DNA of 52,690 nt from Nitrospirae bacterium CG2_30_53_67 (GCA_001873285.1 MNYV01000017.1:1-52690); one strand, 5' to 3'. Positions 19,221 to 52,690 are shown, counted from the stretch's first letter. Numbers and translations are program-made. Notes: a model not told the origin generated them from the letters alone.

Positions 19221-19296
19221 GGGCCGTTAGCTCAGCTGGTAGAGCACCGCCCTTTTAAGGCGGGTGCCGTTGGTTCGAATCCAACACGGCTCACCA
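19221..19296 (+). tRNA. tRNA-Lys (anticodon TTT)
   Basis: Cloverleaf by eye: acceptor GGGCCGT/ACGGCTC, anticodon loop CTTTTAA, T-loop TTCGAAT, encoded CCA. Confidence 0.9.
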
Positions 19297-19388
19297 AAGA
19301 AAAAGGGGGGGGCAAAACATTCACGGACAGGGGCATAACCTGAGAATTTTTTGCCCTCTGAGAAGAAAATGATAAGATCATATATGCC

Positions 19389-19466
19389 GTCCCCATCGTC
19401 TAGCCTGGCCCAGGACACCGCCCTTTCACGGCGACGACGGGGGTTCAAATCCCCCTGGGGACGCCA
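19389..19466 (+). tRNA. tRNA-Glu (anticodon TTC)
   Basis: Acceptor GTCCCCA/TGGGGAC, anticodon loop CTTTCAC, T-loop TTCAAAT, encoded CCA. Confidence 0.9.
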
Positions 19467-19500
19467 AACAAAAAATTCAAATTTCAAAACTTAGAAGAGA

Positions 19501-19554
19501 GGGCAGATAGCTCAGATGGGAGAGCATCCCGGTTACGACCGGGAGGGTCACGGG
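19501..19554 (+). pseudogene. tRNA-Val-like 5' fragment (broken in the T-arm)
   Basis: Acceptor GGGCAGA, D-arm GCTCAGATGGGAGAGC, anticodon arm TCCCG-GTTACGA-CCGGG (TAC). After ...GGGTCACGGG the sequence runs CCACTGAGCAACATG before a T-loop-like TTCGATC. No 3' acceptor strand (TCTGCCC) follows. Confidence 0.6.
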
Positions 19555-19585
19555 CCACTGAGCAACATGTTCGATCAGAAAGAAC

Positions 19586-19661
19586 GGGCGGGTAGCTCAG
19601 CTGGGAGAGCATCGGCCTTACAAGCCGGGGGTCACAGGTTCAATCCCTGTTCCGCCTACCA
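19586..19661 (+). tRNA. tRNA-Val (anticodon TAC)
   Basis: Acceptor GGGCGGG, D-arm GCTCAGCTGGGAGAGC, anticodon loop CTTACAA, T-loop TTCAATC, encoded CCA. Confidence 0.88.
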
Positions 19662-19690
19662 AGTAATAAGAATTTGAAATTTCAAATTTC

Positions 19691-19742
19691 AAACCTGCAT
19701 ATTCAGTTGGTTAGAACGTCCCGGTTGTGACCGGGAAGGTCG
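19691..19742 (+). pseudogene. tRNA-like 5' fragment interrupted by family-B element
   Basis: The D-arm ATTCAGTTGGTTAGAAC is almost identical to that of tRNA-Asp at 19943. The anticodon arm TCCCG-GTTGTGA-CCGGG has the same stem as the fragment at 19501. The variable region AAGGTC is followed immediately by the family-B element. GCAGGAT at 19929-19935 is 6/7 complementary to the 5' strand AACCTGC. Confidence 0.5.
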
Positions 19743-19913
19743 CTTAGTGGTCCTGTTCGTAAATATGGTAACGTACCGAGAGTGCCGTAGGGCGGCATCA
19801 TCAAGGCGCGCGACTGAGGCGTACCCCCTGCGGTACGTCGCAAGGAGCGGAACGCCGAGGAGGCCGCCCTACGGCACTCGAATGCGACCGTATTTACGAA
19901 TAGGACCACTTAG
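19743..19913 (+). mobile_element. Family-B MITE-like long-hairpin element, copy B1 (with CTTAG direct duplications)
   Basis: The body 19748-19908 starts TGGTCCTGTTCGTAAATATGGT and ends ACCGTATTTACGAATAGGACCA, an imperfect ~26-nt TIR. The interior is also self-complementary (GTGCCGTAGGGCGGC...GCCGCCCTACGGCAC). CTTAG flanks both sides as a direct repeat, not an inverted one. Confidence 0.85.
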
Positions 19914-19942
19914 TCCCATCAACCCCGAGCAGGATAGCTGGG

Positions 19943-20019
19943 GGGGCGGTAGTTCAGTTGGTTAGAACGTCGGCCTGTCACGCCGAAGGTCACGGGTTCG
20001 ACCCCCGTCCGCCCCGCCA
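19943..20019 (+). tRNA. tRNA-Asp (anticodon GTC)
   Basis: Acceptor GGGGCGG/CCGCCCC, anticodon loop CTGTCAC, T-loop TTCGACC, discriminator G, encoded CCA. Confidence 0.9.
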
Positions 20020-25719: not shown

Positions 25720-27276
25720 ATGGCAGAGTTCAGATACCGCTGGGCCCGGATCGGGGACATCAACGCCTTTTTCGGGCTGATGCTGGACAACATGTCCGAT
25801 CTGGTGATCATGGCCGGGATCCTGATCGGGGTCTTCGGCTTCCCCAAGGAGATCGTTCTTTACCGGATGCTTCCGGGCACGGCGATCGGCGTGCTGTTCG
25901 GGGACCTGATCTATACCTTTCTTGCCTTTCGCCTGGCGCAACAGACGGGCCGAGACGATGTGACGGCCATGCCGCTGGGACTCGATACGCCCTCCACGTT
26001 CGGGCTGGCCTTCGGCATCATCGGCCCGGCCTACCTCAAGTTCAAGGACCCGATCCTGGTCTGGCACATCACCACGGCGGTCATCATCCTCATGGGGATC
26101 ATCAAGATCATCGGGGCCTGGACCGGTCCTGCGATACGAAGGCTCGTGCCGCGGGCCGGGCTCCTCGGTTCCATTGCCGCCGTGGCCATGATGCTGATCG
26201 CCTTCTTCCCTTCACTCAAGATTTTTTCCAATCCTATTGTCGGTTTTGTCTCTCTGGGGATCATCCTGATGACCCTGATCGGAAAGATCAAGTTCCCCTT
26301 CAGGATGCCGGGCGCCCTGGCCGCCGTCCTGATCGGAACGGTGATCTATTATCTCCTTCACCTGACCGGTATCTCGGTGATTCCGGAAGAGCATCTGCCG
26401 AGACTCCATCTAAGCGTGGGGTTTCCTCTGCCCACACTCGGCTTCATGGAAGGAATGACTGAGGCCCTGAAATATCTCCCCATTGCCGCGCCTTTTGCGC
26501 TTGCGATTGTGGTGGGAGGGATTGATGTCACCGAATCCGCGGCCGCGGCCGGGGATGAGTACGACAGCAGGACGATCATCCTGACCGACGGGATCGGGAC
26601 CATCCTTGCGGGCCTCTGCGGCGGAATCCTTCAGAGCACCCCCTATATCGGCCATCCGGCCTACAAGGATATGGGAGGGAGGTCCGCATACACCCTGGCG
26701 ACCGCGGTCTTTATCGGCCTAGGCGGTATCCTCGGATACCTCTCCTTTTTCGTTAATCTCCTCCCGGAAGCGGCCGTGGCCCCGATCCTGGTCTTTATCG
26801 GGCTCGAGATCACGGCCCAGGCCTTTGAGTCCAGTCCGGCCCGTCATGCCAAGGCCGTGGCCATGGCCTTCATCCCGGTGATCGCCAATCTTCTCTTTAT
26901 CGAGATCGGAAGCCATATCACCAACCTCGGGAAGGAAGCCTCGGATCTGACCGGTGAGGTGGCCGTCACGTTTCAGACCATCATGATGATGGGAAACGGT
27001 TTCATCCTCTCATCGCTCCTCTGGGGCTCCATCACCGCCTTTATTATTGATAGAAAGCTCAAGATCGCCGCGGCATTTCTCTTGACGGCTGGGGTTTTCT
27101 CGCTTTTCGGAATCATCCACTCCCCCTTTGCAAGCGGCGAGATCTTTCTCCCCTGGCAGATCCAGACCACGGCCCATTACAAATTCTTCGCCGCTTACCT
27201 TCTCACCGGACTCCTCTTGTTCGCCCTGGACGGCCCCTCCAATGCCGACACGGGACCCGGCAAAAAAAGTCAGTGA
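25720..27276 (+). CDS. Polytopic membrane permease (possibly NCS2/xanthine-uracil permease superfamily)
   Basis: 518 aa with more than 12 predicted hydrophobic helices. The family assignment is a weak recollection. Coding status is strong (long ORF with a consistent hydrophobic pattern). Confidence 0.6.
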   Translation: MAEFRYRWARIGDINAFFGLMLDNMSDLVIMAGILIGVFGFPKEIVLYRMLPGTAIGVLFGDLIYTFLAFRLAQQTGRDDVTAMPLGLDTPSTFGLAFGIIGPAYLKFKDPILVWHITTAVIILMGIIKIIGAWTGPAIRRLVPRAGLLGSIAAVAMMLIAFFPSLKIFSNPIVGFVSLGIILMTLIGKIKFPFRMPGALAAVLIGTVIYYLLHLTGISVIPEEHLPRLHLSVGFPLPTLGFMEGMTEALKYLPIAAPFALAIVVGGIDVTESAAAAGDEYDSRTIILTDGIGTILAGLCGGILQSTPYIGHPAYKDMGGRSAYTLATAVFIGLGGILGYLSFFVNLLPEAAVAPILVFIGLEITAQAFESSPARHAKAVAMAFIPVIANLLFIEIGSHITNLGKEASDLTGEVAVTFQTIMMMGNGFILSSLLWGSITAFIIDRKLKIAAAFLLTAGVFSLFGIIHSPFASGEIFLPWQIQTTAHYKFFAAYLLTGLLLFALDGPSNADTGPGKKSQ

Positions 27277-32302: not shown

Positions 32303-34447
32303 ATGATAAAGCGTTTTTCCATCCGGATAAAATTAATCGCCGCCTTCATCATCATCGGCGTCTTCCCCATGCTTCTCGCAACGTATATCGGAGTCGAGAT
32401 CGCTTCAGGAAGGCTGGAGAAGGGGATTGAGGAACGCATCAACTACGCGGGAAAATCCGCCGTTTACCTGATTGCCAAGAAGAAGACGGAACTCGAGGGA
32501 GTGGCCCGTTCTTTTTCCGGGGATCCGAGACTCAGAAAGGTCATCCAGGGCGGAGTGAACATCAAATTCCTCTGGTTTGACACGCCGCTCCAGGTTTACC
32601 TTTTCAATCATGAAAACCATATGATCTTCACCAGCACGGGCGAGAAATTCACCCGTCCGAAAAATCCGGCGGAGGGGATGACCTTGCTCCGGACACAATC
32701 CGGCAGCGAACCGTGGCCGCTCCTGGTCTTTCTTCTGCCTGTGTCGGACCAGGGACGTCCCATCGGGACCATCATGACCGGCTATCCGCTCGGCAATGAA
32801 TTTCTCAACGACCTCAAGAGCGTGACCGGCGTGGAGTCCATGCTTTTCAAACAGGACCCGTCCGGGGGGTACTTCTCCATAGAGACAAAAGGGAGGCTGG
32901 ACCTCCCCGATGAAATCCTAAAAAGTGTGGCAACCCATGGCCGCCAGGCATTCACCAAGTCTTCGAGGATCCGGCTTGAAGAGAAAGAGGAAGAGTATCA
33001 CGCCCTTTTAACCCCCTTGCCGGATGCCGACGGTCGTGTATCGTATATATTATTCAACGGCATATCCTCCTCCGAGACCCTGAGCCGGAAGCTCGCCTCA
33101 ACCCGCTTCTACTATATCCTGATTTTCATCGGTGTGCTCCTTTCCGTCATCGCCGGATCGGCTTTGGGCACGGGGATCTCCTGGCCTATCCTTCGGTTGT
33201 CCAGCGGGGTGAAGGCCATCAGCGCGGGCGATTACAACCAGAAAATACAAGTCCGGAGCCGGGACGAGATCGGAGAACTGGCTGGATCCTTCAACCTCAT
33301 GACGGATCGTCTCAAGGCGACCATCGCCAAACTGGTGGAAAACCAGAACTATACCGAGAATATGCTTCGCAGTCTCCTCAATGGAGTGATGACGATTGAT
33401 CCGGATTCCATGATCATCAGAATAAACCGATCGACCGAAAACATCCTGAACTTGCCGGCGGAGAGGATGGTAGGCAAAAAGATTTCCGCCGTCTTTGATC
33501 AGGATCCATCGATCCTTGCATGGATTCAGGAGGGTCTCGAACGCCGCCAGGTCAAGGAAGGCATGGAAACCATCCTCCACCGGAGAGACGGGGCGATCAT
33601 CCCGATCGAGCTCTCCCTCTCCCCGTTGGAAGATCCGGTCAGACCCGCAGGCTCCAAAACCGGACTGGTGGTCCTGATCCGGGATCTCACCGAGATTCAG
33701 GCGCTCAAGGAACATATCCGCAGGCAAGACCGTCTTGCGGCGCTTGGGGAACTTTCTGCAGGGATTGCCCATGAGATTCGTAACCCCCTCGGAATCATCA
33801 AGGGAGCTGCCGGCATCCTCAAGAAGGACTCGAGCTCACAACCCCCGAGATTTGACGAACTCTGTTCGGTCATCCTGGAGGAGGTCGACCGTTTGAACGA
33901 TGTGATCAACGATTTTCTGGAATTCGCCCGGCCGAGACCACCGCAGTTCAAGCCGCAGAACATCAATGAATTGATCCGCGGAACCATTCAAATGACCGCG
34001 CTGCAGATAGAAAAAAATAAAATCTGCATCCATGAAAACCTTAAATCGGACCTCCCCCTGATCATGGCGGACGAACACCAGATCCACCAGGTCTTTTTAA
34101 ACCTGATTCTGAACGCCCTGCAGGCCACGGACCAGGGGGATTCTCTGGAGATCACCACACGCCATCTTAAAGAATTGAATCAGATCGAAATCATTTTTGC
34201 GGACACCGGAATCGGCATTCCTGAGGATAACCTGAATAAGGTGTTCAACCCATTCTTCACCACGAAAGAACAGGGAACCGGACTTGGACTCTCCGTGGTC
34301 AGCAAAATCATCGAAAACCATCATGGCAAGATTTTCCTGGCCAGTGACGCCGGGAGGGGGACGCGGTTTAACATCCACCTGCCCGTGGCAGAGAAGTTTG
34401 ACAGCGCTGATCAGGAAGATGCCGTGAGAACCGGCTCCGCTAAATAA
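32303..34447 (+). CDS. Sensor histidine kinase (periplasmic sensor, HAMP, PAS, HisKA, HATPase)
   Basis: 714 aa. Two TM segments flank a ~230-aa sensor domain. H-box ELSAGIAHEIRNPL and N/G boxes (NLILNALQAT, DTGIGI, GTGLGLS). Confidence 0.9.
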   Translation: MIKRFSIRIKLIAAFIIIGVFPMLLATYIGVEIASGRLEKGIEERINYAGKSAVYLIAKKKTELEGVARSFSGDPRLRKVIQGGVNIKFLWFDTPLQVYLFNHENHMIFTSTGEKFTRPKNPAEGMTLLRTQSGSEPWPLLVFLLPVSDQGRPIGTIMTGYPLGNEFLNDLKSVTGVESMLFKQDPSGGYFSIETKGRLDLPDEILKSVATHGRQAFTKSSRIRLEEKEEEYHALLTPLPDADGRVSYILFNGISSSETLSRKLASTRFYYILIFIGVLLSVIAGSALGTGISWPILRLSSGVKAISAGDYNQKIQVRSRDEIGELAGSFNLMTDRLKATIAKLVENQNYTENMLRSLLNGVMTIDPDSMIIRINRSTENILNLPAERMVGKKISAVFDQDPSILAWIQEGLERRQVKEGMETILHRRDGAIIPIELSLSPLEDPVRPAGSKTGLVVLIRDLTEIQALKEHIRRQDRLAALGELSAGIAHEIRNPLGIIKGAAGILKKDSSSQPPRFDELCSVILEEVDRLNDVINDFLEFARPRPPQFKPQNINELIRGTIQMTALQIEKNKICIHENLKSDLPLIMADEHQIHQVFLNLILNALQATDQGDSLEITTRHLKELNQIEIIFADTGIGIPEDNLNKVFNPFFTTKEQGTGLGLSVVSKIIENHHGKIFLASDAGRGTRFNIHLPVAEKFDSADQEDAVRTGSAK

Positions 34448-34462
34448 TTTTTTTTAGACCAT

Positions 34463-34689
34463 CTCCAAAAGAGTGGGTGAAAACATAAGGGTTCAAGGGG
34501 TCAAGGATTCCAGGGGTCAAGTGAAGTGCTCAAACACGATAAGGAGTTAAAGGTTTGGCAGAAGTCTTATCAATTATGCTTGGAGATTTACAAAATAACA
34601 AACTGATCAAATCACTGGAAAACAAACACTTGACCCCTTGACCCCTGGAACCCTCGAACCCTTTTTACCCACTAAATGGGAGAAGAACC
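34463..34689 (+). repeat. Family-A composite inverted-repeat element, copy 3 (shortest)
   Basis: CTCCAAAAGAGTGGGTGAAAACATAAGGGTTCAAGGGGTCAAGGATTCCAGGGGTCAAGTGAAGTG ... CACTTGACCCCTTGACCCCTGGAACCCTCGAACCCTTTTTACCCACTAAATGGGAGAAGAACC. It lies between the kinase and its response regulator. Confidence 0.85.
34538..34641 (+). pseudogene. Internally deleted, frameshifted remnant of a four-helix-bundle (23S rRNA IVS protein / Avd-like) gene
   Basis: Translates to DKELKVWQKSYQLCLEIYKITN*, the characteristic N-terminal helix of that family. In another frame it reads LIKSLENKHLTP*, a typical C-terminal tail. Confidence 0.65.
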
Positions 34690-34748
34690 TCATTTTAAAA
34701 AGTTGTATGCTTTCTACCGATCCAGGCTACTAAAAAAAAGGTGCACAC

Positions 34749-36113
34749 ATGGAAGAGATCCTGGTCATTGATGATGAAAAAAAGATGCATCGGATCCTCC
34801 AGATCTCCCTGGAAGGGCTGGGATTTCATGTCATCCCTGCCAGCACGGGACTTGAAGGGATAGAACGGGCCAAGACACTCACCCCTTCATTGGTGATCAC
34901 GGACATGAAGATGCCGGGCATGTCCGGAATGGAGGTCCTTCATGAGATCAAAAACATAGGCGAGGAAATTCCCGTGATCATCATGACGGCCTACGGCACG
35001 GTGCAAACCGCCGTGGAAGCCATGAAAGCCGGGGCCTTTGATTACATTCTGAAACCCTTTGACATTTCAGAGATGGAAATCATTGTAGAGAAAGCCGTCC
35101 GTTACCGAAGGCTTGCAAGAGAAAACGAACAGCTCAGATCCGAGCTTCAGTCAAAATACCGGTTCGATAACATCATCGGCAGGAGTAATCCCATGCAGCG
35201 GATTTTCCAGCTGATTAATCAGATCGCCCCCACCAAAAGCACGATTCTGATCCGGGGAGGAAGCGGAACCGGCAAGGAGTTGGTTGCCGGGGCCGTTCAT
35301 TACCACAGCAACCGATCGTCCATGCCTTTCATCAAACTGAACTGCGGCGCCATCCCCGGCACCCTCCTGGAGTCCGAACTTTTCGGGTATGAAAAAGGGG
35401 CCTTCACCGGAGCGGAACGGCAAAAACCGGGGCGTTTCGAGCTGGCAGACGGCGGGACCCTTTTTCTGGATGAGATCGGCGATATGGATACGCTTCTTCA
35501 AGTAAAAATCTTAAGGGTCCTTCAGAACGGGGAGTTTGAACGTCTTGGCGGCACACAAACGATCCGGGTGGATGTGAGGATGATCGCGGCGACCAACACC
35601 GATCTGGAACAGAGAGTTCGGGAGGGCCGCTTCCGCGAGGACCTCTATTACCGGATTAATGTGGTTCCCATCGAAATTCCCCCTCTCCGGGAACGCCGGG
35701 AGGACATCCCCCTTCTGGTCCATCACTTCATTGATAAATACTCGGAGGAGACCCATCAGACGAAAAAAACCATACTACCTGAGGCCATGGATTTGTTAAT
35801 TCATTATGATTGGCCGGGAAACGTACGAGAACTTCAGAATTTGATCGAGCGGGCCGTCGTATTGACCCGCTCCGATACCTTAACCCCGAAATCGTTTACA
35901 TTCCCTGACCGTCCCAGAAAAACCGCCGCATCCCTAAATGAGATCATCATCCCGGAACAAGGGATTTCTCTATCCGATGTGGTGGAAGAGTTGGAGAAAT
36001 CTTACATCAAAAAGGCGTTGATCCAGGCCGAAGGTGTCCAGATCCGGGCCGCAGAACTCCTCCATACGACCAGAAAGATCCTCCGCTATAAAATGGAAAA
36101 GTACGGAATTTAA
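34749..36113 (+). CDS. Sigma54-dependent response regulator (NtrC/AtoC family: REC + AAA+ + Fis-type HTH)
   Basis: 454 aa. Receiver domain ([13 protein letters not shown]), Walker [15 protein letters not shown] motif, and a C-terminal HTH. Confidence 0.92.
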
Positions 36114-36197
36114 GCACTACCCCCTTCTAACTCAACCATTTCTTTTTGAGCATACGAGCAGCCCTCTATTTTTTTGTCAATAATTTGATAATTTTTC

Positions 36198-36226
36198 TTG
36201 ACATCCACGCTTATTTTGTCTATCTT
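36198..36226 (+). promoter_or_regulatory. Putative sigma70 promoter giving a ~190-nt leader for the parA-CBM gene
   Basis: TTGACA (36198-36203), 17-nt spacer, TATCTT (36221-36226). Confidence 0.4.
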
Positions 36227-36416
36227 TTACACCATATATAGTGTATCTTTCATCAATAAACACAAAATAGGACGGAGGAGGGAATCTGTCCTGCATGAAC
36301 ATAACGAGGAGGTGATGCAGAAAAGACACCATGAATGGTTCTGACCTGCTTTTGAACTTCCAAGGGAAGATCGTATGTCTATAGCAGAGAGTCAGCGAAC
36401 CTGAAAGGAGCAGGCT

Positions 36417-37562
36417 ATGAAAACAATAGCAATTGTCAACCAAAAAGGAGGCTGCGGTAAGACAACAACGGCCATCAATCTTTCAGCATCTCTTGCTTCT
36501 TTGGGTAAAAGGGTCTTGCTGATCGATATGGATCCACAGTCACATGCATCATTAGGGCTCAATGTCAGTCCAAAAGAACTCGAAATTTGTCTTTATGATG
36601 TCCTCCTCTCGATCGATGAGGTGGATAGGCCTATACTGGAAGACATTATCTCCCATGTAGGGGAAAATCTCGATCTGATCCCTTCCAATATAGTCCTGTC
36701 TGTCTTTGAACAAAAAATGGCCAACGCTCCGGGGAGAGAAACCCGGCTCCTGCAGGCCATCCAGAGAATGAAGAAAGAATATGATTATATTCTCATTGAC
36801 TGTCCGCCTTCTGTGGGACTTTTGTCCTTCAATGCCTTGATGGCATCCCAGTATGCGATCATCCCCGTTGAACCGAGTTTTTTCTCACTCCACGGTCTTG
36901 GGAAACTCACGGAGACCATCCAGCTCTTTGCTGAAAAATTAAGTCACAACATTCATATTCATATTCTGCTCACCATGTTCGATAGAAGAACAAGGCTTTC
37001 GAGCGAGATCTTTGAGGAGATCAAAAAACATTTCATGGAAAACACGTTCCAGACGGTCATTCACTTTAACATCCGCCTCAAAGAGGCAGCCAGTTTCGGC
37101 TCTCCCATCACCGAGTTTGACAAGCATTGCATCGGATACAAAGATTTTCTTTCCCTTGCACAAGAGGTTCTTCAAATTCCCGAAAAGGAAGCGCAGGAAC
37201 AGACCGCGAAGATCCTCGGCCCTCGTCCGGTGCAAAACGGCGTCCTTTTCTCCTACAAGGGAGCCGATATACAATCCCTGAAACTGGTGGGAGACTTTAA
37301 CAACTGGACGCCGGATCCGTCTTCCGAACTTCAGAAAGAGCCGGATGGGACCTGGAAAAAATTGGTCTCCCTGCCGCCCGGAACCTACCATTACAAGTTC
37401 ATCGCGGATGGAGAGTGGAAGGAGGACCAATATAATCCCAAATACATCATCAACGAGTTCGGCGGGATTGACTCGGTTGTGGAAGTCCCTTACTGGGAAC
37501 GCCATCAGCAAAAAGGGAGTGACCCCGCATCCGATATGAACGCATCATGCCGGCTCCAATGA
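36417..37562 (+). CDS. ParA/Soj-family ATPase fused to a C-terminal CBM48 / AMPK-beta glycogen-binding-type domain
   Basis: 381 aa. Deviant Walker A VNQKGGCGKTTT and a ParA core through ~aa 255. The C-terminus VLFSYKGADIQSLKLVGDFNNWTP...DGTWKKLVSLPPGTYHYKFIADGEWKEDQYNP matches the GxFNNW...YKFxVDGxW signature of CBM48/AMPK1_CBM. Confidence 0.85.
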   Translation: MKTIAIVNQKGGCGKTTTAINLSASLASLGKRVLLIDMDPQSHASLGLNVSPKELEICLYDVLLSIDEVDRPILEDIISHVGENLDLIPSNIVLSVFEQKMANAPGRETRLLQAIQRMKKEYDYILIDCPPSVGLLSFNALMASQYAIIPVEPSFFSLHGLGKLTETIQLFAEKLSHNIHIHILLTMFDRRTRLSSEIFEEIKKHFMENTFQTVIHFNIRLKEAASFGSPITEFDKHCIGYKDFLSLAQEVLQIPEKEAQEQTAKILGPRPVQNGVLFSYKGADIQSLKLVGDFNNWTPDPSSELQKEPDGTWKKLVSLPPGTYHYKFIADGEWKEDQYNPKYIINEFGGIDSVVEVPYWERHQQKGSDPASDMNASCRLQ

Positions 37563-37605
37563 CCCTGAAGGTCATTCAGTGAAGCAGGCCGGATCTTCCA
37601 TTTAT

Positions 37606-37773
37606 CTAAGTGGTCCTGTTCGTAAATATGGTGGCGTACCGAGAGGGCCGTAGGGCGTCTCATCTCCGCGCTCGACTGAGGCGTACCCCTCTGGTACACC
37701 GTAAGGAGCGGAACTTTGATCCGACCGCCTTACGGCACTCGAATGCCACCGTATTTACGAATAGGGCCACTAA
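37606..37773 (+). mobile_element. Family-B MITE-like long-hairpin element, copy B2 (with CTAAG direct duplications)
   Basis: The body 37611-37768 starts TGGTCCTGTTCGTAAATATGGT and ends ACCGTATTTACGAATAGGGCCA. It is flanked by CTAAG on both sides. The central part (CGACTGAGGCGTACCC..GGTAC...AAGGAGCGGAAC) has the same orientation as B1. Confidence 0.85.
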
Positions 37774-37791
37774 GGTCAAAAAGGAGATACC

Positions 37792-38676
37792 ATGTCAGGG
37801 CGGCGGTTGGGAAGAGGGCTCGAGGAGATATCCCATGTATTCCTCTCAACTGAATCCTCAACGAGATCAACCGATAACCCACTCGGTCGGAACGTGCAGG
37901 AGTTTGATTTAAGATGTGATGCGATGCCTGAAATTCACACGATCGGAATCACGGGCGGCCCCATGGAGAGGATGGGCATCTTTGCCATCTGCAACATCGG
38001 GATCGAGCTGGCCAGACAGGGGTACCGGGTGCTGGTGATCGACGAGGATCCCGGAAGTTTGAACGTGACCCGGCTCATGGGGGTGACCGACATTGAGAAC
38101 GCCGCCGAACCCATCTTGATCCATGCCCCCATGGGTGTCCGCATTGCCTACCGCACTCCTTTTCTCAGCCATCTCATGTCTTACAGGGAACTCATCCGGG
38201 ATGGGAGGCGTTGTCCCTGGCCTGAAGAATATCAAAAATATGATTTCATGATTTTTCACATCCCATCCACCCGGTTGGAAGAACTGGGGACCCTGCTCAG
38301 ACAGATCTCCCTCTGTATTGTCATCTCGCCTTCCGACCGGGCAGGTATGCTCAAATCCTACTCTGTGATCAAGGCTCTCCATCAGAAGTCTGGAGAGATT
38401 CAAACCGGCCTGATTGTTTATTCTGAAAAAGGTGAGCAGGATGCGGAAGACGCCTTTTTCAAAATGGCCAAGAATGCAAAACGGTTTTTGGAAAAAGATC
38501 TTGTCAGCTATGCTTTTATACAGAAAGGAGAGGAGATCGACGAATCCATATCCCAAGGGGTCCCATTGGTATTGAAATGGCCGAGTTCCGAGATACGAAG
38601 ACAAATGTATAATATCAGCAGATTGATCATTGAGGATGATGACCGGAGGCGCAGTTCCGATGGAAATATGGAATAG
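37792..38676 (+). CDS. MinD/ParA-fold protein with a degenerate Walker A and a ParB-like N-terminal peptide
   Basis: 294 aa. The N-terminus is MSGRRLGRGLEEISHVFL. The P-loop position reads GITGGPMERMGIF instead of GKGGxGK[ST]. The rest is collinear with MinD/FlhG (RVLVIDEDPG, YDFMIFHIPST, GLIVYS...). AAGGAG lies 7 nt upstream of the ATG. Confidence 0.75.
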   Translation: MSGRRLGRGLEEISHVFLSTESSTRSTDNPLGRNVQEFDLRCDAMPEIHTIGITGGPMERMGIFAICNIGIELARQGYRVLVIDEDPGSLNVTRLMGVTDIENAAEPILIHAPMGVRIAYRTPFLSHLMSYRELIRDGRRCPWPEEYQKYDFMIFHIPSTRLEELGTLLRQISLCIVISPSDRAGMLKSYSVIKALHQKSGEIQTGLIVYSEKGEQDAEDAFFKMAKNAKRFLEKDLVSYAFIQKGEEIDESISQGVPLVLKWPSSEIRRQMYNISRLIIEDDDRRRSSDGNME

Positions 38677-38696
38677 GAAGGATTAAAACAAAACGG

Positions 38697-39263
38697 ATGC
38701 CATTTAAACAAATCCATCTGAACAAGAAACAAGACCTGATCCAGCTCATCAGGAACACCTCAACCCTGATTGAACAGGGGGTTGAAATTCTCGGCGGCCC
38801 GATCGGAACGGAGGAATTCCCCCTGATTGATCTGGTAATGAAAGATAGAAATAGAAGGCCTCTGCTGATTCTTGCTGATGTCGGACCGGATGAAAACGCC
38901 CTGTTGAATGCGGAATCTCAATCGGACTGGTTTGTAAAAAACCTCTCCATGCTCAGGCAGTTGTTCCCGATCCTTGACTTGAACAAAACGGTTTCCCCCC
39001 GGGCTGCCCTGATCTACCCGGAATTTCCTATGCTGATGAAAAGGTCCCTCAGGGCAGCCCCTCTCCTATCCCCGCTGTTTTATCAATATCGCTGTTTTGA
39101 GGTTCTTGATCAAAGGTTTCTCTATCTGGAGCGGTTTCAAACGAACCCTGAAAAACAGGGCTCGAGCGGAGAGTATATTGAAGGTCTTCACCCTTTCCGG
39201 AAAGGCCTTGCCGGAAAAGAGGTGGAGATCACGGCAGAGGAGAGAGAGGCTTTTCTCTCCTGA
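38697..39263 (+). CDS. Hypothetical protein, possibly a degenerate PD-(D/E)xK / NucS-like fold
   Basis: 188 aa. DLIQLIRNTSTLIEQGVEILGGPIGTEEFPLIDLVMKDRNRRPLLILADVG follows the pattern of DUF91/NucS-type nuclease cores. The usual E-x-K position reads A-D-V. This is a weak, motif-level call. Confidence 0.55.
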   Translation: MPFKQIHLNKKQDLIQLIRNTSTLIEQGVEILGGPIGTEEFPLIDLVMKDRNRRPLLILADVGPDENALLNAESQSDWFVKNLSMLRQLFPILDLNKTVSPRAALIYPEFPMLMKRSLRAAPLLSPLFYQYRCFEVLDQRFLYLERFQTNPEKQGSSGEYIEGLHPFRKGLAGKEVEITAEEREAFLS

Positions 39264-39284
39264 TCCAGGGAAACCACAAAAAAA

Positions 39285-39317
39285 GACCCCCCGCCTCCAT
39301 AGCAGGGGGTCTTTTTT
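39285..39317. terminator. Bidirectional intrinsic terminator between the 188-aa ORF and groEL
   Basis: GACCCCC-(loop)-GGGGGTC stem, flanked by A-run (39278-39284) and T-run (39312-39317). Confidence 0.7.
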
Positions 39318-41555: not shown

Positions 41556-42938
41556 ATGGATAGGGAGGAACCATCCATGCAGTTCAAATCAAGCCTCAAA
41601 ATGAGATATTGTCCGATGATCGACTCCTTCATCAAGGTCAAAGAGCTGACCCAGGAAGAAATGGACCTGTTTTTTCAAAACGCAGACATGAGGGATAAAA
41701 GCTCATACCAGGAGCTGGTTATCAAGGCGTCTATTCCTGAGTACGATGAAGAGGTCCGATCCTTGATCCATCGTGAATATGACCGGGAGGTCGACATTGA
41801 AAGCGCCATCGAGGAACTCTACCGGATGTGTATCAAGGTGAACCCGTCTTTGAATATCTACAATGTCAATATACCCGTGCAGGAAAAAAATGAGCGATCC
41901 TCTTTGCTCCTCTCTACAGGGGGAAAAGACCTCTGGACCTGCATACGGGAAATCCATGGAATCGAAGACTCGTTAAGAAAGAGGATCATAGGACAGGATG
42001 AGGCCATTAACAAGATCGCCCAGTCTATCAAAAGCGCAAAGGTCGGGATCAAGGATTCAAACAGGCCGGTGGGATGTTTCCTTTTCATCGGGCAGACCGG
42101 CGTAGGCAAGACCGAACTGGCCAAGGCCCTGGCCGAGTTCTTGACCGGGGATGAGAAAAATATGGTCCGGGTGGACTGCTCGGAGTTCTCGCAGCCCCAT
42201 GAATATGCCAAGCTGATCGGCGCCCCTCCGGGTTATGTAGGATACGATGACGGCGGGAGCCTTAGCGAACAGATGCTGAAACGGCCGGTGAATGTGGTCC
42301 TCTTCGATGAGATCGAAAAGGCAAACCCCATGATCCACAACCTGCTTCTTCAAATCATGGATGAGGGGATTCTCACCGACAATAAAGGGAGAAAAATCCC
42401 CTTCCAGGATGCCGTGATCATCCTCACGAGCAACGCAGGCGTTGAAGGAATTGAGGAGATGAAAAGCGCCGTAGGATTCACGAGACAGGACGTCTTGAAT
42501 CGTAACGTGGTCAGGCGTGAGACCCTGAAATCCCTTGAGAAGATCTTCCGCCCTGAATTCCTGAACCGCATTGACGAGATCATTTGTTTCAACCCGCTCG
42601 GACACAAGGAAACACGAAGGATTGTCCAACTGCAGCTTGAACACCTGCAGCGGAAACTCAGCGGGATGAAGATCCATCTCCGGTTCAGCAGGAATGTCAT
42701 CAATTTTCTGATCCGCGAAGGCGCCGATCCGCGTTATGGAGCAAGACCTTTGAAGCGCGCCGTCAAAAAGTTCATTGAAGTACCGCTGGCTGAAAGAATT
42801 CTGAGCGGACCGGCTTCGTTACCTGCAAAAATTCTGGCGGTGATGTCGGAAGAAAAAAGCGTCACCTTTGTGGATCCGGCGCCTCGGCAAAAATCATCAA
42901 AACGGGGAAAAGAAATCAGGAACCAGGTTACCCCGTGA
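41556..42938 (+). CDS. Single-ring AAA+ ATPase of the ClpA/ClpC D2 type with a unique ~135-aa N-terminal region
   Basis: 460 aa. From ~aa 140 it is collinear with the Clp D2 module (IIGQDEAI...PVGCFLFIGQTGVGKTELAKAL...LIGAPPGYVGYDDGG...VVLFDEIEKA...TSNAG...FRPEFLNRIDEII.F..L...GARPLKR). There is no D1 module. The start codon is uncertain. Confidence 0.85.
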   Translation: MDREEPSMQFKSSLKMRYCPMIDSFIKVKELTQEEMDLFFQNADMRDKSSYQELVIKASIPEYDEEVRSLIHREYDREVDIESAIEELYRMCIKVNPSLNIYNVNIPVQEKNERSSLLLSTGGKDLWTCIREIHGIEDSLRKRIIGQDEAINKIAQSIKSAKVGIKDSNRPVGCFLFIGQTGVGKTELAKALAEFLTGDEKNMVRVDCSEFSQPHEYAKLIGAPPGYVGYDDGGSLSEQMLKRPVNVVLFDEIEKANPMIHNLLLQIMDEGILTDNKGRKIPFQDAVIILTSNAGVEGIEEMKSAVGFTRQDVLNRNVVRRETLKSLEKIFRPEFLNRIDEIICFNPLGHKETRRIVQLQLEHLQRKLSGMKIHLRFSRNVINFLIREGADPRYGARPLKRAVKKFIEVPLAERILSGPASLPAKILAVMSEEKSVTFVDPAPRQKSSKRGKEIRNQVTP

Positions 42939-45626: not shown

Positions 45627-45702
<76 letters not shown>

Positions 45703-45928: not shown

Positions 45929-48151
45929 ATGGCGGATCGGCAATCCGGATCCGAGAGATCCCATTCCTCCCATCGCTTCCGTCCGAAACTGTTTGTCATC
46001 CTCGGCATCCTGGCCTTGATCGGGTTCTTTTTCAGGTTCAGATCGAAGCTTGAGAACTCGGAGAAGATCCGGATCCCGGTCTCCGATTACAGCATCCTTC
46101 TTGCTCTGGCCGTGATCATCACCATCCTCTCCCTTGTGCTCATCCTTATGGTTTTTCGAAACCTGATCAAGTATTACTTCGAGGGGAGAAAGGTTCTGCC
46201 GAGGGCCAGAATCAAGACTAAGCTCATCATCGCCTTTATCGGTTTCTCCGTGATTCCTTCCGTGCTTCTGTTCACCATCGCCAGTTTCCTGATCACCACG
46301 AGCATAGACAACTGGTTCAATAAACGCGTGGAGGATTCCCTGGAGGAGTCCATGGACGTGGCCAAGGTCTACTATAAGAATTCCGAGCTGAACGCCCTCT
46401 ATTACGGACGGCAGATCAGCGAACAGATCACGGAAAACAAGCTGCTCAACGAGGTGAATCTGAAGCGGCTTCGGGAACTCATCAACCAGAAGCAGAAAGA
46501 GTACAACCTCGGTGTGGTGGAGGTCTTTTCGGCCACGCACGAAGAGTTGGTCAAGGCCATGAACCCGGAGGTCCCTTCAAAGACCTTTGTGGGGCCGCGC
46601 TCTGAGATCATCGAGATCGGATTCAAGGGCAAGGAACACACGGAAAGCGAACCCATGGGAGAGGGGGATATCATCCGGGGCGTGGTGCCGGTGGTTTCCT
46701 CCTTTAACCGCACGGATGTGGTCGGGGTGATCGTGGTCAACTACTATGTCCAGAAGAGCCTGGCCAACAAAATGATGAACATCATCAGCGCCTTTGATGA
46801 ATATCGCAGGCAGGCAAGTTTAAAAAATCCCAAAAAGGCCCTCTACATCATGGTTCTTTTCCTGGGCACCCTGGTGATCGCCTTCTCGGCCATCTGGGTG
46901 GGGCTTTATCTGGCCCGCAAGATTACGATCCCCATCCAGGAGCTGACGGGGGCCACGCACCGGATTGCGGAGGGGGATCTGGACTTTGTGATTGATGTGG
47001 ACGCCAAGGATGAACTGGGTGTTTTGATGGACTCCTTCAACCGGATGATGAGCGATCTCAAGGGAAGCAAGGAAAATCTCGAGCGGACGAACATCGAACT
47101 CAAGGTTTCGAACGAAGAGCTGGACAGAAGGAGGAGTTACATCGAGACCATCCTGCAGAATATCGATACCGGAGTCATCTCCATGGACTGGCAGGGGCGC
47201 ATCACCACCATCAACCGGGCAGTGGAACAGATGCTGGGGATTCGGATGGTGGACGCCAGAGGAAAAGATTACCGGGACATCTTCAAGTTTCCCAAACTCC
47301 TGGAGAGCATCCAGATGGTGACGACCGGACATCAAAAGAGCTTTGGCAGGGATCTTAAGATTTCGACCGAACAAAAGACCCTGCATGTCAAGGGCCATGT
47401 CACATCGCTGGAAGACGACCGGGGAAACTATCTGGGCGCGGTCGTGGTCCTGGATGATTTCACCGAGCTGGCCAAGGCCCAGAAAGCGGCGGCATGGCGC
47501 GAGGTAGCCCGCCGGATCGCCCATGAGATCAAAAACCCGCTGACTCCGATCCAGCTTTCGGCCCAGCGGCTGCTGCGCAAGCACGAAAAGAAATCCGAGG
47601 ACCTGGATGAGGTGATCCGGGATTGTACTTCAACGATTATCAGCGAAGTGGAAGGAATGAAAAAGCTGGTGAACGAATTCTCCGAGTTCGCCAAGATGCC
47701 GGATGCGCAGCCCTCGCCCAATGATCTCCACGTCATCGTCGAGGAGGCTGCCACCCTCTATGAAGGGCACAAAGGGATCGAAATCATCAAGGAGCTGGAC
47801 GAAAAACTCCCCATCCTGAATATAGACAAAGAACAGATCCGAAGGGCCTTGATCAATCTGCTGGAGAATGCGGTGGAAGCCATGAGCGATCATGGAAGGA
47901 TCTGGATCAGAACCTGCTTCAATCCCGGCCTTAAAATGGCTACCCTGGAGGTGCGGGACGAGGGGACCGGGATCCGTCCGGAAGACAAGGAGAAACTCTT
48001 TTTGCCTTACTTCTCGAGAAAAAAATCCGGCACCGGCCTGGGGCTCTCCATCGTGGACCGTATTGTCAAGGATCATGGAGGGTATATCCGGGTGAAGGAC
48101 AATAAACCCAAGGGGACCATGTTTGTGATAGAGCTGCCGGTCGCGGCTTGA
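45929..48151 (+). CDS. NtrY-like sensor histidine kinase (multi-TM, HAMP, PAS, HisKA, HATPase)
   Basis: 740 aa. N-terminal TM bundle, HAMP, PAS, H-box VARRIAHEIKNPL, G-boxes DEGTGI and GTGLGLS. The architecture matches NtrY. Confidence 0.88.
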   Translation: MADRQSGSERSHSSHRFRPKLFVILGILALIGFFFRFRSKLENSEKIRIPVSDYSILLALAVIITILSLVLILMVFRNLIKYYFEGRKVLPRARIKTKLIIAFIGFSVIPSVLLFTIASFLITTSIDNWFNKRVEDSLEESMDVAKVYYKNSELNALYYGRQISEQITENKLLNEVNLKRLRELINQKQKEYNLGVVEVFSATHEELVKAMNPEVPSKTFVGPRSEIIEIGFKGKEHTESEPMGEGDIIRGVVPVVSSFNRTDVVGVIVVNYYVQKSLANKMMNIISAFDEYRRQASLKNPKKALYIMVLFLGTLVIAFSAIWVGLYLARKITIPIQELTGATHRIAEGDLDFVIDVDAKDELGVLMDSFNRMMSDLKGSKENLERTNIELKVSNEELDRRRSYIETILQNIDTGVISMDWQGRITTINRAVEQMLGIRMVDARGKDYRDIFKFPKLLESIQMVTTGHQKSFGRDLKISTEQKTLHVKGHVTSLEDDRGNYLGAVVVLDDFTELAKAQKAAAWREVARRIAHEIKNPLTPIQLSAQRLLRKHEKKSEDLDEVIRDCTSTIISEVEGMKKLVNEFSEFAKMPDAQPSPNDLHVIVEEAATLYEGHKGIEIIKELDEKLPILNIDKEQIRRALINLLENAVEAMSDHGRIWIRTCFNPGLKMATLEVRDEGTGIRPEDKEKLFLPYFSRKKSGTGLGLSIVDRIVKDHGGYIRVKDNKPKGTMFVIELPVAA

Positions 48152-48211
48152 AAATGCAAAGCATCCGCTTTGCATTTTCAATGGGAAAAGAACCTCAATG
48201 AAGGAATGTCT

Positions 48212-49588
48212 ATGGCCAAGGCGCGGATTCTTTTAGTGGATGACGAAGTCAGCATCTTGAAATCTCTGACCCATGTGCTCGAGGACGAGGGGTATGAGGT
48301 GGTCTCTGCCGGGTCCGGGGAAGAAGCGCTGAAGATTTTCGGGGATGTGTCGCCCGATGTCACCCTTCTGGATGTCTGGCTCCCGAGTATGGACGGGATC
48401 GAGGTCTTAAGAAAGATTAAGGAAAACGACCCGGATGCCGTCATCATCATGATGTCCGGTCATGGCACCATCGATACGGCCGTCCGGTCCACCAAGTTCG
48501 GCGCCTACGACTTCATCGAAAAACCCCTATCCGTGGACAAGCTGGATATCGTGATCCAGAACGCCCTGGAAAAGAAGAGGCTCGAAGATGAGAACCGCGC
48601 CCTCCGAGGGCGTCTGATCCAGGGGTATGAGATTGTTGGGGAGACGCCGGTCATACTCGAATTAAAAGAGCAGATCAAGATCGCCGGGCCCAGTAACGGC
48701 AGGGTCCTGATCTACGGAGAGAACGGGACCGGCAAGGAACTGATCGCCCGCCAGATCCATTTCCAAAGCGATCGGAGGGATAATCCCTTTGTGGAGGTCA
48801 ACTGCGCGGCCATCCCGCAGGAGCTGATCGAATCGGAACTCTTCGGCCACGAGAAAGGATCTTTCACCGGGGCGACCAGCATGCGGAAGGGGAAGTTCGA
48901 ACTGGCGGACCAGGGGACGCTCTTTCTGGACGAGATCGGCGATATGACTCTGGCCACACAGGCCAAGGTCCTCCGCGTCCTGCAGGAGCAGACCGTCCAG
49001 CGGGTGGGGGGGACCAAGACCATCGAAGTGGATGTGCGCGTAATTGCCGCCTCAAACAAGGACCTTGAAAAGGAGATCAAAGAAGGGCGTTTCCGGGATG
49101 ATCTTTTCTACCGGCTGAATGTCATCCCCATGTATATGCCTCCGCTCCGGGAAAGGCCCGGGGACATCCCTCTTCTGGTTCAGTATTTTATCCATGAGTA
49201 TGCGCAGAAGAACGGGGTCAGGCCCAAAGAGATTCTCAAGGAAGGGATGAACCTCCTGATGCAGTACGACTGGCCGGGAAACGTGCGGGAGCTTAAGAAC
49301 ATCGTGGAACGGATCATGATCATGGTGCAGCAAGATACGATCGGACCGGAGAATATTCCCGTGGGGATCCGCGGTGCGGCCGGCAGGGCCAAGGTCATGC
49401 ATTATTCCGGGACCCTGAGAGAGGCCAGGCAGGAATTTGAGCTGGACTATATCCTCCAGAAGCTTCAGGAGAATGACTGGAATATCTCCCAGACCGCGAA
49501 GGTCCTGGAGATCGAGAGAAGCAATCTTCACCGGAAGATCAAAAAACTCGGACTGGAAGAGAAAAGGTCTTCGGGGATGCAGCGCTAA
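48212..49588 (+). CDS. NtrX-like sigma54-dependent response regulator
   Basis: MAKARILLVDDE receiver domain, Walker A GENGTGKE, GSFTGA motif, and a C-terminal HTH. The ATG at 48212 has AGGA 7 nt upstream. The ORF is open from 48170. Confidence 0.9.
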   Translation: MAKARILLVDDEVSILKSLTHVLEDEGYEVVSAGSGEEALKIFGDVSPDVTLLDVWLPSMDGIEVLRKIKENDPDAVIIMMSGHGTIDTAVRSTKFGAYDFIEKPLSVDKLDIVIQNALEKKRLEDENRALRGRLIQGYEIVGETPVILELKEQIKIAGPSNGRVLIYGENGTGKELIARQIHFQSDRRDNPFVEVNCAAIPQELIESELFGHEKGSFTGATSMRKGKFELADQGTLFLDEIGDMTLATQAKVLRVLQEQTVQRVGGTKTIEVDVRVIAASNKDLEKEIKEGRFRDDLFYRLNVIPMYMPPLRERPGDIPLLVQYFIHEYAQKNGVRPKEILKEGMNLLMQYDWPGNVRELKNIVERIMIMVQQDTIGPENIPVGIRGAAGRAKVMHYSGTLREARQEFELDYILQKLQENDWNISQTAKVLEIERSNLHRKIKKLGLEEKRSSGMQR

Positions 49589-51790: not shown

Positions 51791-52639
51791 ATGAGAAAAT
51801 TCTTATTTTTCAACTGGATATTACTGGTTGTCATGGGATGCAGCGTGCCGATTGAGAGCGGATTCATCTACTTCCCGGATGCTCATGTGGCCGGCACGCC
51901 CTCGGATGTGGGGCTTGCCTATGAGGAGGTCTTTATCCGGACCGGAGACGGGGTCAGGATTTGCGCCTGGTATGTTCCCTGTGAAGGGGCGGAAGCGACC
52001 CTGCTCTGGTTTCACGGAAATGCCGGGAACATCGGGGACCGTGTGGAACTGCTCAAAATTTACCATGATGCGTGGCGGGTCAATCAGATGATCGTGGACT
52101 ACCGGGGGTATGGGAAGAGTGGCGGGAAGGTCTCTGAACAGGGGACCTATGAAGATGCCCGTTCAGCCCTCCGCTATCTTGCCTCGGACAAGGGGGTCTC
52201 GCCTATGGCGTTGATCCTCTTCGGGGAATCCCTCGGGTCAGCCGTGGCCGTTCAGATGGCCATGGAGTCTCCCTGCGCAGGCCTGATTCTGGAATCGCCC
52301 TTTACCTCGGTCCGCGACATGGCGGAGGTCCACTATCCCGTTCTGGGCCGTCTTATCCCCTTCCGCATCCGCTACGATTCCATCGGAAAGATCGGCAAGG
52401 TTCATGTTCCCCTGTTGATTCTCCACGGGGACCGGGATGACATCGTTCCCTATAAACTGGGAAAGAGGCTTTTTGATGCAGCCAATGAACCCAAGACCTT
52501 TTTCACGGTCCGGGATGCCGGACACAACGATATCCTGGTCTGGGTGAAGGAGTCCTTCCATGAGACGGTGAGAAAATTTATTCATGACTCGCTTAGTGGT
52601 CCTGTTCGTAAATATGGTGACGTACCGAGAGGGTCGTAG
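51791..52639 (+). CDS. Alpha/beta hydrolase (S33/BAAT-like) with a C-terminus and stop codon supplied by a family-B element
   Basis: 282 aa. N-terminal TM/signal segment, nucleophile elbow GESLGSA, acid HGDRDDIVP, and His in DAGHND. The last 16 codons (LSGPVRKYGDVPRGS*) lie inside repeat B3. Confidence 0.85.
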   Translation: MRKFLFFNWILLVVMGCSVPIESGFIYFPDAHVAGTPSDVGLAYEEVFIRTGDGVRICAWYVPCEGAEATLLWFHGNAGNIGDRVELLKIYHDAWRVNQMIVDYRGYGKSGGKVSEQGTYEDARSALRYLASDKGVSPMALILFGESLGSAVAVQMAMESPCAGLILESPFTSVRDMAEVHYPVLGRLIPFRIRYDSIGKIGKVHVPLLILHGDRDDIVPYKLGKRLFDAANEPKTFFTVRDAGHNDILVWVKESFHETVRKFIHDSLSGPVRKYGDVPRGS

Positions 52640-52690
52640 GGTGGTCTCATCAAGGCGCGCGACTGAGGCGTACCCCTCTGGTACACTGTA
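52592..52690 (+). mobile_element. Family-B MITE-like element, copy B3 (cut by the window end)
   Basis: CTTAG + TGGTCCTGTTCGTAAATATGGTGACGTACCGAGAGGGTCGTAGGG...CGACTGAGGCGTACCCCTCTGGTACAC, collinear with B1 and B2. Confidence 0.85.

Follow-up and report, generated by a model that had tools for sequence, protein, structure and literature searches.

Introduction

Chromosomes, plasmids, carboxysomes, chemoreceptor arrays and division sites are all known to be actively positioned by ATPases of the ParA/MinD type; to our knowledge, this has not been established for polysaccharide granules. In the McdAB system of carboxysomes and in PomXYZ, a nucleoid-bound ParA-type ATPase and a stimulating partner distribute non-DNA cytoplasmic cargo. 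Here, we describe an operon of three genes (genes 1–3) located in a 52,690-nucleotide (nt) stretch of DNA from Nitrospirae bacterium CG2_30_53_67 (MNYV01000017.1), the whole of which is referred to below as the window. Gene 1 encodes a ParA/Soj-type ATPase fused to a CBM48 module, gene 2 a predicted pseudo-ATPase carrying a ParB-type peptide, and gene 3 a protein with a predicted inactive nuclease fold. On balance, we incline to the view that the trio codes for a ParA-type system that organises alpha-glucan (glycogen) granules spatially in the cytoplasm. The trio suggests a variant of the established ParA/MinD positioning that is so far undescribed.

Among solved structures, the closest to the gene 1 product is the chromosomal ParA of Myxococcus xanthus (MxParA; PDB 8RAY), a component of a ParABS system. 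The motif by which ParB proteins bind ParA reads L-G-R/K-G-L-x-x-L/I, i.e., hydrophobic-G-R/K-G-hydrophobic-x-x-hydrophobic; in M. xanthus ParB it consists of L11, L15, L18 and I19 around the central R13, which is a Lys in about half of ParBs (PMC12462528). The trio resembles this system in the deviant Walker A motif, the DNA-binding Arg and the peptide pocket of gene 1 as well as in the N-terminus of gene 2, which fits the ParB motif. It differs in having neither the CTPase and helix-turn-helix (HTH) domains of ParB nor a parS site, in presenting the peptide on a MinD-like protein that appears to be dead, and in the CBM48 module and the Walker A Cys of its ATPase.

The three co-oriented open reading frames (ORFs) lie on the plus strand at 36417–37562 (381 amino acids, aa), 37792–38676 (294 aa) and 38697–39263 (188 aa). 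An initial annotation, made from the nucleotide sequence, had read their products as a full ParA/Soj ATPase with a CBM48 tail, a protein keeping the MinD/FlhG fold without a P-loop and opening with RRLGRGLEEI, a string resembling the ParB peptide, and a NucS/DUF91-like protein without the catalytic E-x-K. The strings cited there (KGGCGKT, GDFNNW...GTYHYKFIADGEW, GGPMERMG and RRLGRGLEEI) were all found in these ORFs, and the analyses presented below agree with each of the proposed identities.

Gene 1 Combines a ParA/Soj-Type ATPase with a CBM48 Module

The product of gene 1 (36417..37562) consists of a ParA ATPase domain (aa 1–255; 36417..37181), a variable linker of ~20 aa and a C-terminal CBM48/AMPK-beta-type module (aa ~276–358; 37242..37490). 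The Pfam search returned AAA_31 (E = 6e-57) and CbiA (2e-21), and the closest PDB entry was 8RAY (3e-56). In NCBIfam, none of the three proteins scored above the cut-off of a model. The residues of gene 1 were then mapped using an alignment with MxParA and the residues defined experimentally in that protein (PMC12462528). All the hallmarks of a ParA were present: the deviant Walker A motif KGGCGKT at K10–T16, D38 at the position of the motif 2 residue D60 of MxParA, the Walker B motif ILID, and R220, which aligns with the DNA-binding R238. KGGxGK[ST] is kept in 100 of the 101 family members, and its Cys-type version KGGCGKT, present in 99 of 101 unique proteins, is a hallmark of the family. 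The pocket receiving the ParB peptide in MxParA (L150, L152, L155, L187 and L192) corresponds to V133, L135, F138, L170 and L175. Judged by these motifs, gene 1 is a complete Soj-type ParA, which would be expected to bind DNA.

The profile search of the C-terminal domain gave a significant match to AMPK1_CBM (PF16561; E = 4.7e-11; score 43.2 bits, cut-off 26.8) that spans aa 286–357. The second model of this group, CBM_48 (PF02922), stayed below its own cut-off for gene 1 of the window and matched most of its homologues. Among the PDB entries, the tail matched the CBM of AMP-activated protein kinase (AMPK) beta1, 1Z0N, at 3e-7. When 17 diverse homologues were used to build a tail profile, its matches were solely alpha-glucan-binding CBM48s, namely those of AMPK beta1 and beta2 (1Z0N, 2F15; ~1e-12), followed by pullulanase, LSF1, SEX4 and GlgB. 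Across 120 homologues, Trp in FNNW, Lys in YKF and Trp in DGxW are kept; we take them to be the equivalents of W100, K126 and W133 of AMPK beta1, from a residue list that also includes N150. The module is fused to a bacterial ParA instead of a kinase scaffold, and we predict that it binds alpha-glucan (glycogen). The best 120 homologues of gene 1 all carry PF16561. In the source records, the proteins of the module go by no names other than "AAA family ATPase", "chromosome partitioning protein" and "hypothetical".

Gene 2 Presents a ParB-Type Peptide on a Predicted Pseudo-ATPase

The direct matches of the gene 2 product (37792..38676) amounted to 22 clusters among 5.8 billion proteins, and in Pfam it showed only sub-threshold matches to ParA/MinD families. 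The protein opens with the family-invariant, disordered peptide LGRGLEEISHVFLS. The ParB-type ParA-binding peptide proper, RRLGRGLEEISHVFLS, occupies aa 4–19 (37801..37848, plus strand). L6, G7, R8, G9, S14, F17 and S19 are invariant in the 22 homologues, and L10, E11, E12 and L18 are nearly so. L6-G-R8-G-L10-x-x-I13 matches the experimentally defined ParB motif position for position, and the gene 2 peptide, unlike that of ParB, continues beyond it into ...ISH(V/L)FLS.

The AlphaFold2 (AF2) model of gene 2 (predicted local distance difference test score, pLDDT, 81) contains a confident core and disordered residues 1–45 (pLDDT <50). The core (aa 46–291; 37927..38664, plus strand) was compared with known structures using Foldseek. 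The best match was FlhG (4RZ2; E 3.7e-14, template modelling (TM) score 0.66–0.76), and FleN, MinD and Soj were matched as well. Unlike the FlhG/FleN/MinD proteins (4RZ2, 5J1J), gene 2 has neither a Walker A motif nor the Asp of Walker B. At the Walker A position, the 22 homologues show no conservation and the window protein reads GGPMERMG, while the Walker B Asp is replaced by His156, as seen in the alignment against gene 1. The motif GxxxxGK[ST] is kept in 1 of 85 gene-2-like proteins, indicating that the loss of the P-loop is an ancient trait of the family. The C-terminus of gene 2 is acidic and is not the amphipathic membrane-targeting helix of the MinD-type proteins, and the flagellar or Min context of these proteins is missing. 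According to the model, gene 2 is a predicted pseudo-ATPase with the MinD/FlhG fold.

No ParB/Srx CTPase, HTH or other ParB domain was found in gene 2 with Pfam or NCBIfam, and no parS was found within 3 mismatches in the window. Since it has the MinD/FlhG fold, no ParB domain and no parS, we conclude that gene 2 is not a ParB.

Gene 3 Has a Predicted Inactive NucS-Type Fold

The 188-aa product of gene 3 (38697..39263) had no match in Pfam or NCBIfam and nothing significant in the PDB by sequence; its identity comes from the fold and from bridging relatives. The best Foldseek matches of the AF2 model (pLDDT 77) were EndoMS/NucS structures (5GKE and 2VLD; E 2e-4 to 9e-4, prob 1.0), followed by other PD-(D/E)xK nucleases, including the Shedu and Card1 domains. 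A profile search of 1.84 billion representatives gave 434 clusters at E<=1e-3. Some distant relatives in this set exceeded the threshold of the Pfam family NucS_C (PF01939): P0170 with 40.9 bits and P0183 with 27.3 bits. When P0170 is aligned with P. abyssi NucS, its D...E-L-K proves to be intact. In the joint alignment, the first catalytic Asp is kept in gene 3 of the window as D45, and L59 and D61 occupy the positions of the catalytic Glu and Lys. At these two positions, N/D, L/G or D/S is found in the other ParA-linked members. The protein aligns only to the C-terminal domain of NucS (chain residues ~126–200), and the N-terminal domain, which binds single-stranded DNA, is absent. It carries a conserved C-terminal EEREAFLS helix, and its family is mostly acidic (median isoelectric point, pI, 5.3–5.8, net charge -3 to -7). 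The combined data predict an inactive NucS-type fold for gene 3. In three distant relatives of gene 3, P0166, P0168 and P0212, a PilZ (c-di-GMP-binding) domain precedes the NucS_C-like domain in the same chain.

An ATPase together with a nuclease-fold protein is a common layout of defence systems, and the resemblance of gene 3 to the Shedu and Card1 nuclease domains would agree with an anti-phage or other conflict system. We regard such a function as very improbable. In the PADLOC search, genes 2 and 3 had no match and the matches of gene 1 were of the generic P-loop kind, the catalytic residues of the nuclease and the P-loop of gene 2 are both lost, and the synteny of the locus is that of a stable housekeeping region and not of a variable island.

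The Partners Are Coupled to the ParA Subfamily across Phyla

The close relatives of the window keep the whole neighbourhood in the order radical SAM, RNase G, kinase, sigma54 regulator, trio and groESL. As this conservation encompasses the entire region, it reflects one lineage, and we rejected synteny within the clade as independent evidence. The sources of further ParA-CBM fusions include metagenome-assembled genomes (MAGs) of Zixibacteria, Omnitrophica and Deltaproteobacteria. On contigs of the Omnitrophota type, two genes without annotation, of ~305 and ~220–233 aa, come after the ParA-CBM gene. The first is a homologue of gene 2 (hhalign over 274 columns; prob 99.3, E 1e-20) and the second one of gene 3 (BLASTP 2e-9). 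A scan with the CBM tail, using one genome per species, detected at least 583 relatives, the best 80 of which are all from MAGs and represent about a dozen phyla.

For the forward test of linkage, 54 loci from outside the window's clade having a full-length ParA-CBM gene were taken from these best 80 relatives. The downstream genes were classed by purpose-built hidden Markov models and inspection. Gene-2-like and gene-3-like genes stood directly behind ParA-CBM in 22 of the 54 loci and a gene-2-like gene only in 5 (two of them at contig ends). A short partner of 142–190 aa having the peptide alone in common with gene 2 was found in 7 loci, and a partner with a drifted peptide (e.g., MPRDLGDVLHYFLP or LEEIAHLYFSS) in another 7. 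Neither the short peptide-only partners nor those with the looser motif have a Pfam domain. A small membrane protein without the peptide followed in 7 loci, other genes in 4, and 2 loci had no room on the contig. Consequently, a peptide-bearing gene lies immediately 3' of ParA-CBM in 41 of the 52 loci with room. The 22 full trios come from MAGs of Zixibacteria, Omnitrophota, Thermodesulfobacteriota, Myxococcota, "delta proteobacterium" and Sedimentisphaerales, as well as from MAGs labelled Spirochaetales and Gammaproteobacteria. Genes 2 and 3 form a fusion in locus L073, whereas L001 and L008 show a 4-nt overlap between them. The synteny proposed for the trio therefore holds in the close clade and extends to distant phyla, where the surroundings differ.

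The membrane protein that replaces the peptide-bearing partner (L018, L025, L026, L028, L038, L047 and L071) has ~105–134 aa and no Pfam match in the two proteins scanned; this subgroup is labelled Omnitrophota/Planctomycetales.

For the reverse test, the 23-residue peptide alone was searched against the metagenome collection. This gave 80 loci, 69 of which had at least 300 nt of upstream sequence. A ParA-CBM gene ended just upstream in 56 of the 69, a ParA of the same subfamily without the CBM tail in 11, and neither in 2. The peptide was thus found directly behind a ParA of the gene 1 subfamily in 67 of 69 loci, indicating that it is a dedicated companion of this subfamily and that the CBM is frequent yet dispensable for the partnership. 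From its conservation across phyla, the trio appears to be ancient, and the fusion and overlap of genes 2 and 3 indicate that its partners are coupled.

The CBM-less ParA proteins (L111, L120, L122, L124, L126, L137, L142, L164 and L165) have ~295–315 aa, and in L127 and L166 an acidic repeat tail stands in place of CBM48. Where the contig reaches far enough, gene-2-like and gene-3-like genes still follow the CBM-less ParA, so that neither the core mechanism nor the role of the partners strictly needs a CBM. This observation speaks for an alternative in which ParA positions another cargo, such as a gene 2–gene 3 complex, a polar or division landmark or some other protein assembly, and CBM48 serves regulation by sensing glycogen or energy. 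Like the CBM of AMPK beta, which has a regulatory role, the module would then couple the activity of ParA to the state of carbon storage and would not carry granules. Further points in its favour are that neither partner gene encodes a domain related to carbohydrates and that the locus of the window contains no glycogen genes. We nevertheless consider it unlikely in view of the neighbouring genes described in the following section.

The Module Is Associated with Alpha-Glucan Metabolism

For the census of neighbours, 274 genes around 42 dereplicated loci were analysed with Pfam and split in two halves. Glyco_hydro_57 (GH57) was the top family in both halves with 11 matches, accompanied by 5 matches to BE_C, the C-terminal domain of branching enzymes. 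Well under one GH57 match would be expected by chance at 1–2 copies per genome, which is a rough estimate and not a computed control. The next most common neighbours were DUF4912, Cu-oxidase_4, phosphoglucomutase and a GlgA-type synthase.

The GH57 glucan-branching enzyme lies near ParA-CBM in 12 of the 54 loci of the forward test, and its arrangement depends on the lineage. It is downstream and co-oriented in the Omnitrophota trios and in Zixibacteria, downstream in Latescibacterota, and immediately upstream in partner-less Omnitrophota (L018, L028, L047 and also L082, which is without the membrane protein). In Thermodesulfobacteriota it is convergent with the module, with a stand-alone CBM48 gene in between. 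Of the loci found by the peptide, 10 also have GH57 near the module. In L059, the same CBM subfamily is itself fused to a GH57 enzyme (AMPK1_CBM + GH57 + Glucodextran_C). Stand-alone CBM48/AMPK1_CBM genes of ~100–125 aa follow just after the trio in L019 (6422–6781, minus strand), L021 (6337–6642, minus), L048 (7945–8304, minus) and L045 (6968–7345, plus); in L019 and L021, this gene is the one between the trio and the convergent GH57.

In four Omnitrophota operons, a DUF4912 + Glucodextran_B protein encoded beside GH57 bears the gene-2-type peptide (L008, 5338–6759; L009, 10704–12575; L041, 8885–10423; L057, 4209–5891). Its version, KKLGKGL(K/E)(E/D)IS(H/T)LFLS, comes after a Lys-rich N-terminus. 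DUF4912 was found in the literature as an uncharacterised domain. Because the peptide occurs on this protein and also on short unrelated proteins, we interpret it as a portable tag connecting clients to ParA.

These associations bear on the sensor role of CBM48 considered above. In several phyla, the module is physically clustered with genes for GH57, DUF4912 and stand-alone CBMs, which argues against such a role, and the peptide on the DUF4912/Glucodextran_B protein points to glucan-bound clients rather than mere sensing. The idea of a glycogen cargo, raised in the initial annotation, is thereby strengthened by the GH57 neighbours, the GH57 fusion and the DUF4912 peptide, whereas the function at granules itself stays a prediction.

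Promoter and Genomic Context of the Operon

The trio was noted at first to follow one promoter-like site and to lack a ParB/parS, Min or flagellar context, and both statements were borne out. A sigma70-type promoter, TTGACA-N17-TATCTT (36198..36226, plus strand), matches the consensus at 10 of 12 positions. Sigma70-like matches occur in this region at chance frequency, and this one is singled out by conservation: both hexamers and the flanking A/T-rich blocks are kept in 5 relatives whose proteins are 50–85% identical. On this evidence, the trio has its own conserved sigma70-type promoter. Around it lie operator-like iterated TTTTGT(C/G) half-sites (36170..36269, unstranded), which overlap and follow the promoter as direct and inverted repeats. 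About four of them are found near the promoter, within blocks conserved in the clade, and they may constitute an operator. A palindrome, TACAC-N8-GTGTA (36228–36245), is located after the promoter and is conserved in the same 5 relatives. The 5' leader (36233–36416, ~190 nt) contains conserved blocks and no unusual fold (z -1.0). The operon ends at a strong bidirectional intrinsic terminator (39279..39317, unstranded), a 17-bp GC-rich stem between A and T runs, which is common to gene 3 and the convergent groEL. No ParB, Min or flagellar gene was found near the trio.

The repeated half-sites bring up an alternative in which the trio partitions DNA or organises the chromosome by a type Ib logic. 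Gene 3 would be the DNA-binding "centromere" protein, gene 2 an adaptor presenting the peptide, and the iterated promoter sites an operator or a centromere. Besides the clade-conserved half-sites and palindrome, the close match of gene 1 to chromosomal ParA, the origin of the gene 3 fold from a DNA enzyme and the existence of a CBM-less ParA variant are consistent with it. We judge it distinctly improbable, because the gene 3 family is mostly acidic, distant loci share no repeat pattern upstream, there is no parS in the window, and the locus is chromosomal, lies among housekeeping genes and has no genes of plasmids or mobile elements around it. Moreover, partitioning of DNA would leave the conserved CBM48 and the GH57 linkage unexplained.

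The module was originally described as directly downstream of a sigma54 two-component pair. The pair does lie upstream of it (32303–36113), but the kinase/sigma54 regulator pair is syntenic with the trio only inside the window's clade. Control of the trio by this pair through sigma54 was considered and rejected: no GG-N10-GC is conserved 5' of gene 1, and the single match in the window is in the wrong context and absent from the relatives. The window holds a second such pair downstream of the trio, a histidine kinase (NtrY_N/HAMP/PAS) and a sigma54-dependent response regulator at 45929–49588.

The spacer of 229 nt that separates gene 1 from gene 2 folds as one long hairpin (-114.5 kcal/mol, z -8.5). 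It contains an inserted palindromic repeat element of ~170 nt (37606..37774, unstranded), which is not part of the conserved module. The corresponding spacers of the relatives have 23–76 nt, showing that the repeat is a lineage-specific insertion. Further copies are present in the window at 19743–19913, in the gap between tRNA-Val and tRNA-Asp, and at 52592–52690, where the copy is cut by the end of the window; a weaker one is found in L001 (16566–16702). The repeat resembles miniature inverted-repeat transposable elements or repetitive extragenic palindromes (MITE/REP-like), with terminal inverted arms of ~35 nt and the conserved core GCGACTGAGGCGTACCCC, and has no match in Rfam. It may alter the expression of gene 1 relative to genes 2 and 3.

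The Rfam scan of the window gave 5 tRNAs only and no match in the leader or the spacer. Four of the tRNA genes (Lys-TTT, Glu-TTC, Val-TAC and Asp-GTC) form a group at 19221–20019 that is interrupted by the palindromic repeat, and tRNA-Ala-GGC lies separately at 45627–45702. A single-ring ClpB-like protein of 460 aa (AAA_2 + ClpB_D2-small; 41556–42938) adjoins groESL, also in L001 and L004, and is followed in some relatives by a T2SSG pseudopilin-like gene. In Omnitrophota loci, an N_methyl pilin-like gene stands just 5' of ParA-CBM. A 518-aa ORF at 25720–27276 has no Pfam match at E<=1e-5.

Discussion

The best-supported reading of these observations is a ParA system that carries its own glucan-binding domain. 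By homology with Soj/ParA, the ATP-bound dimers of gene 1 would bind the nucleoid non-specifically. CBM48 on its flexible linker would hold glycogen, so that the ATPase itself would bridge the granule and the nucleoid. The peptide-tagged partners would stimulate the turnover of ParA, i.e., ATP hydrolysis and release, and could in this way provide the dynamics for a ParA gradient or ratchet. The dead MinD-like core of gene 2 and the dead NucS-like domain of gene 3 would form a complex serving as the adaptor body, as the fusion and the overlap of their genes suggest. In its fullest form, which we put forward tentatively and give somewhat less credence than the organisation of granules as such, the proposal is a ParA system, spanning phyla, by which glycogen granules would be actively spread along the nucleoid using a CBM48-bearing ATPase, a portable ParB-derived peptide tag and an adaptor made of two dead enzymes.

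Several points weigh against a glycogen-organising function. In McdAB and PomXYZ, the adaptor binds the cargo; here, the putative cargo-binding domain would be carried by the ATPase, an arrangement that, by this analogy, differs from the known ParA systems. A further difference from these two systems is that genes 2 and 3 showed no sequence similarity to McdB, PomX or PomY in any search. The CBM of AMPK beta can also have protein–protein or regulatory roles, and the retention of both partners behind the CBM-less ParA has been mentioned above. In gene 1 itself, the sixth residue of the peptide pocket, V116 in MxParA, is replaced by Q99, leaving 5 of the 6 hydrophobic positions retained, and the equivalent of N150 of AMPK beta is an Asp in the window's clade and an Asn in most of the family. 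There is no glycogen gene in the window's own neighbourhood, and all the relatives found are MAG or metagenome sequences.

The initial annotation stated that no system of this composition had been described, and our literature search likewise found no description of a ParA-CBM48 protein or of glycogen positioning; it should be noted that subscription journals were mostly outside this search and that such an absence is no proof.

The active organisation of bacterial glycogen stores is an open question, and the trio is a concrete and testable candidate for it. It offers a soluble ATPase with a predicted glycogen-binding domain and a 16-residue candidate activating peptide, together with two unannotated partner families, those of genes 2 and 3, which have no Pfam or NCBIfam model at cut-off. 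The ParA-CBM module is present in hundreds of species-level genomes from about a dozen mostly uncultured phyla. If the proposed roles hold, it would be an example of pseudo-enzymes recruited as adaptors and of a ParB-type peptide reused outside DNA segregation.

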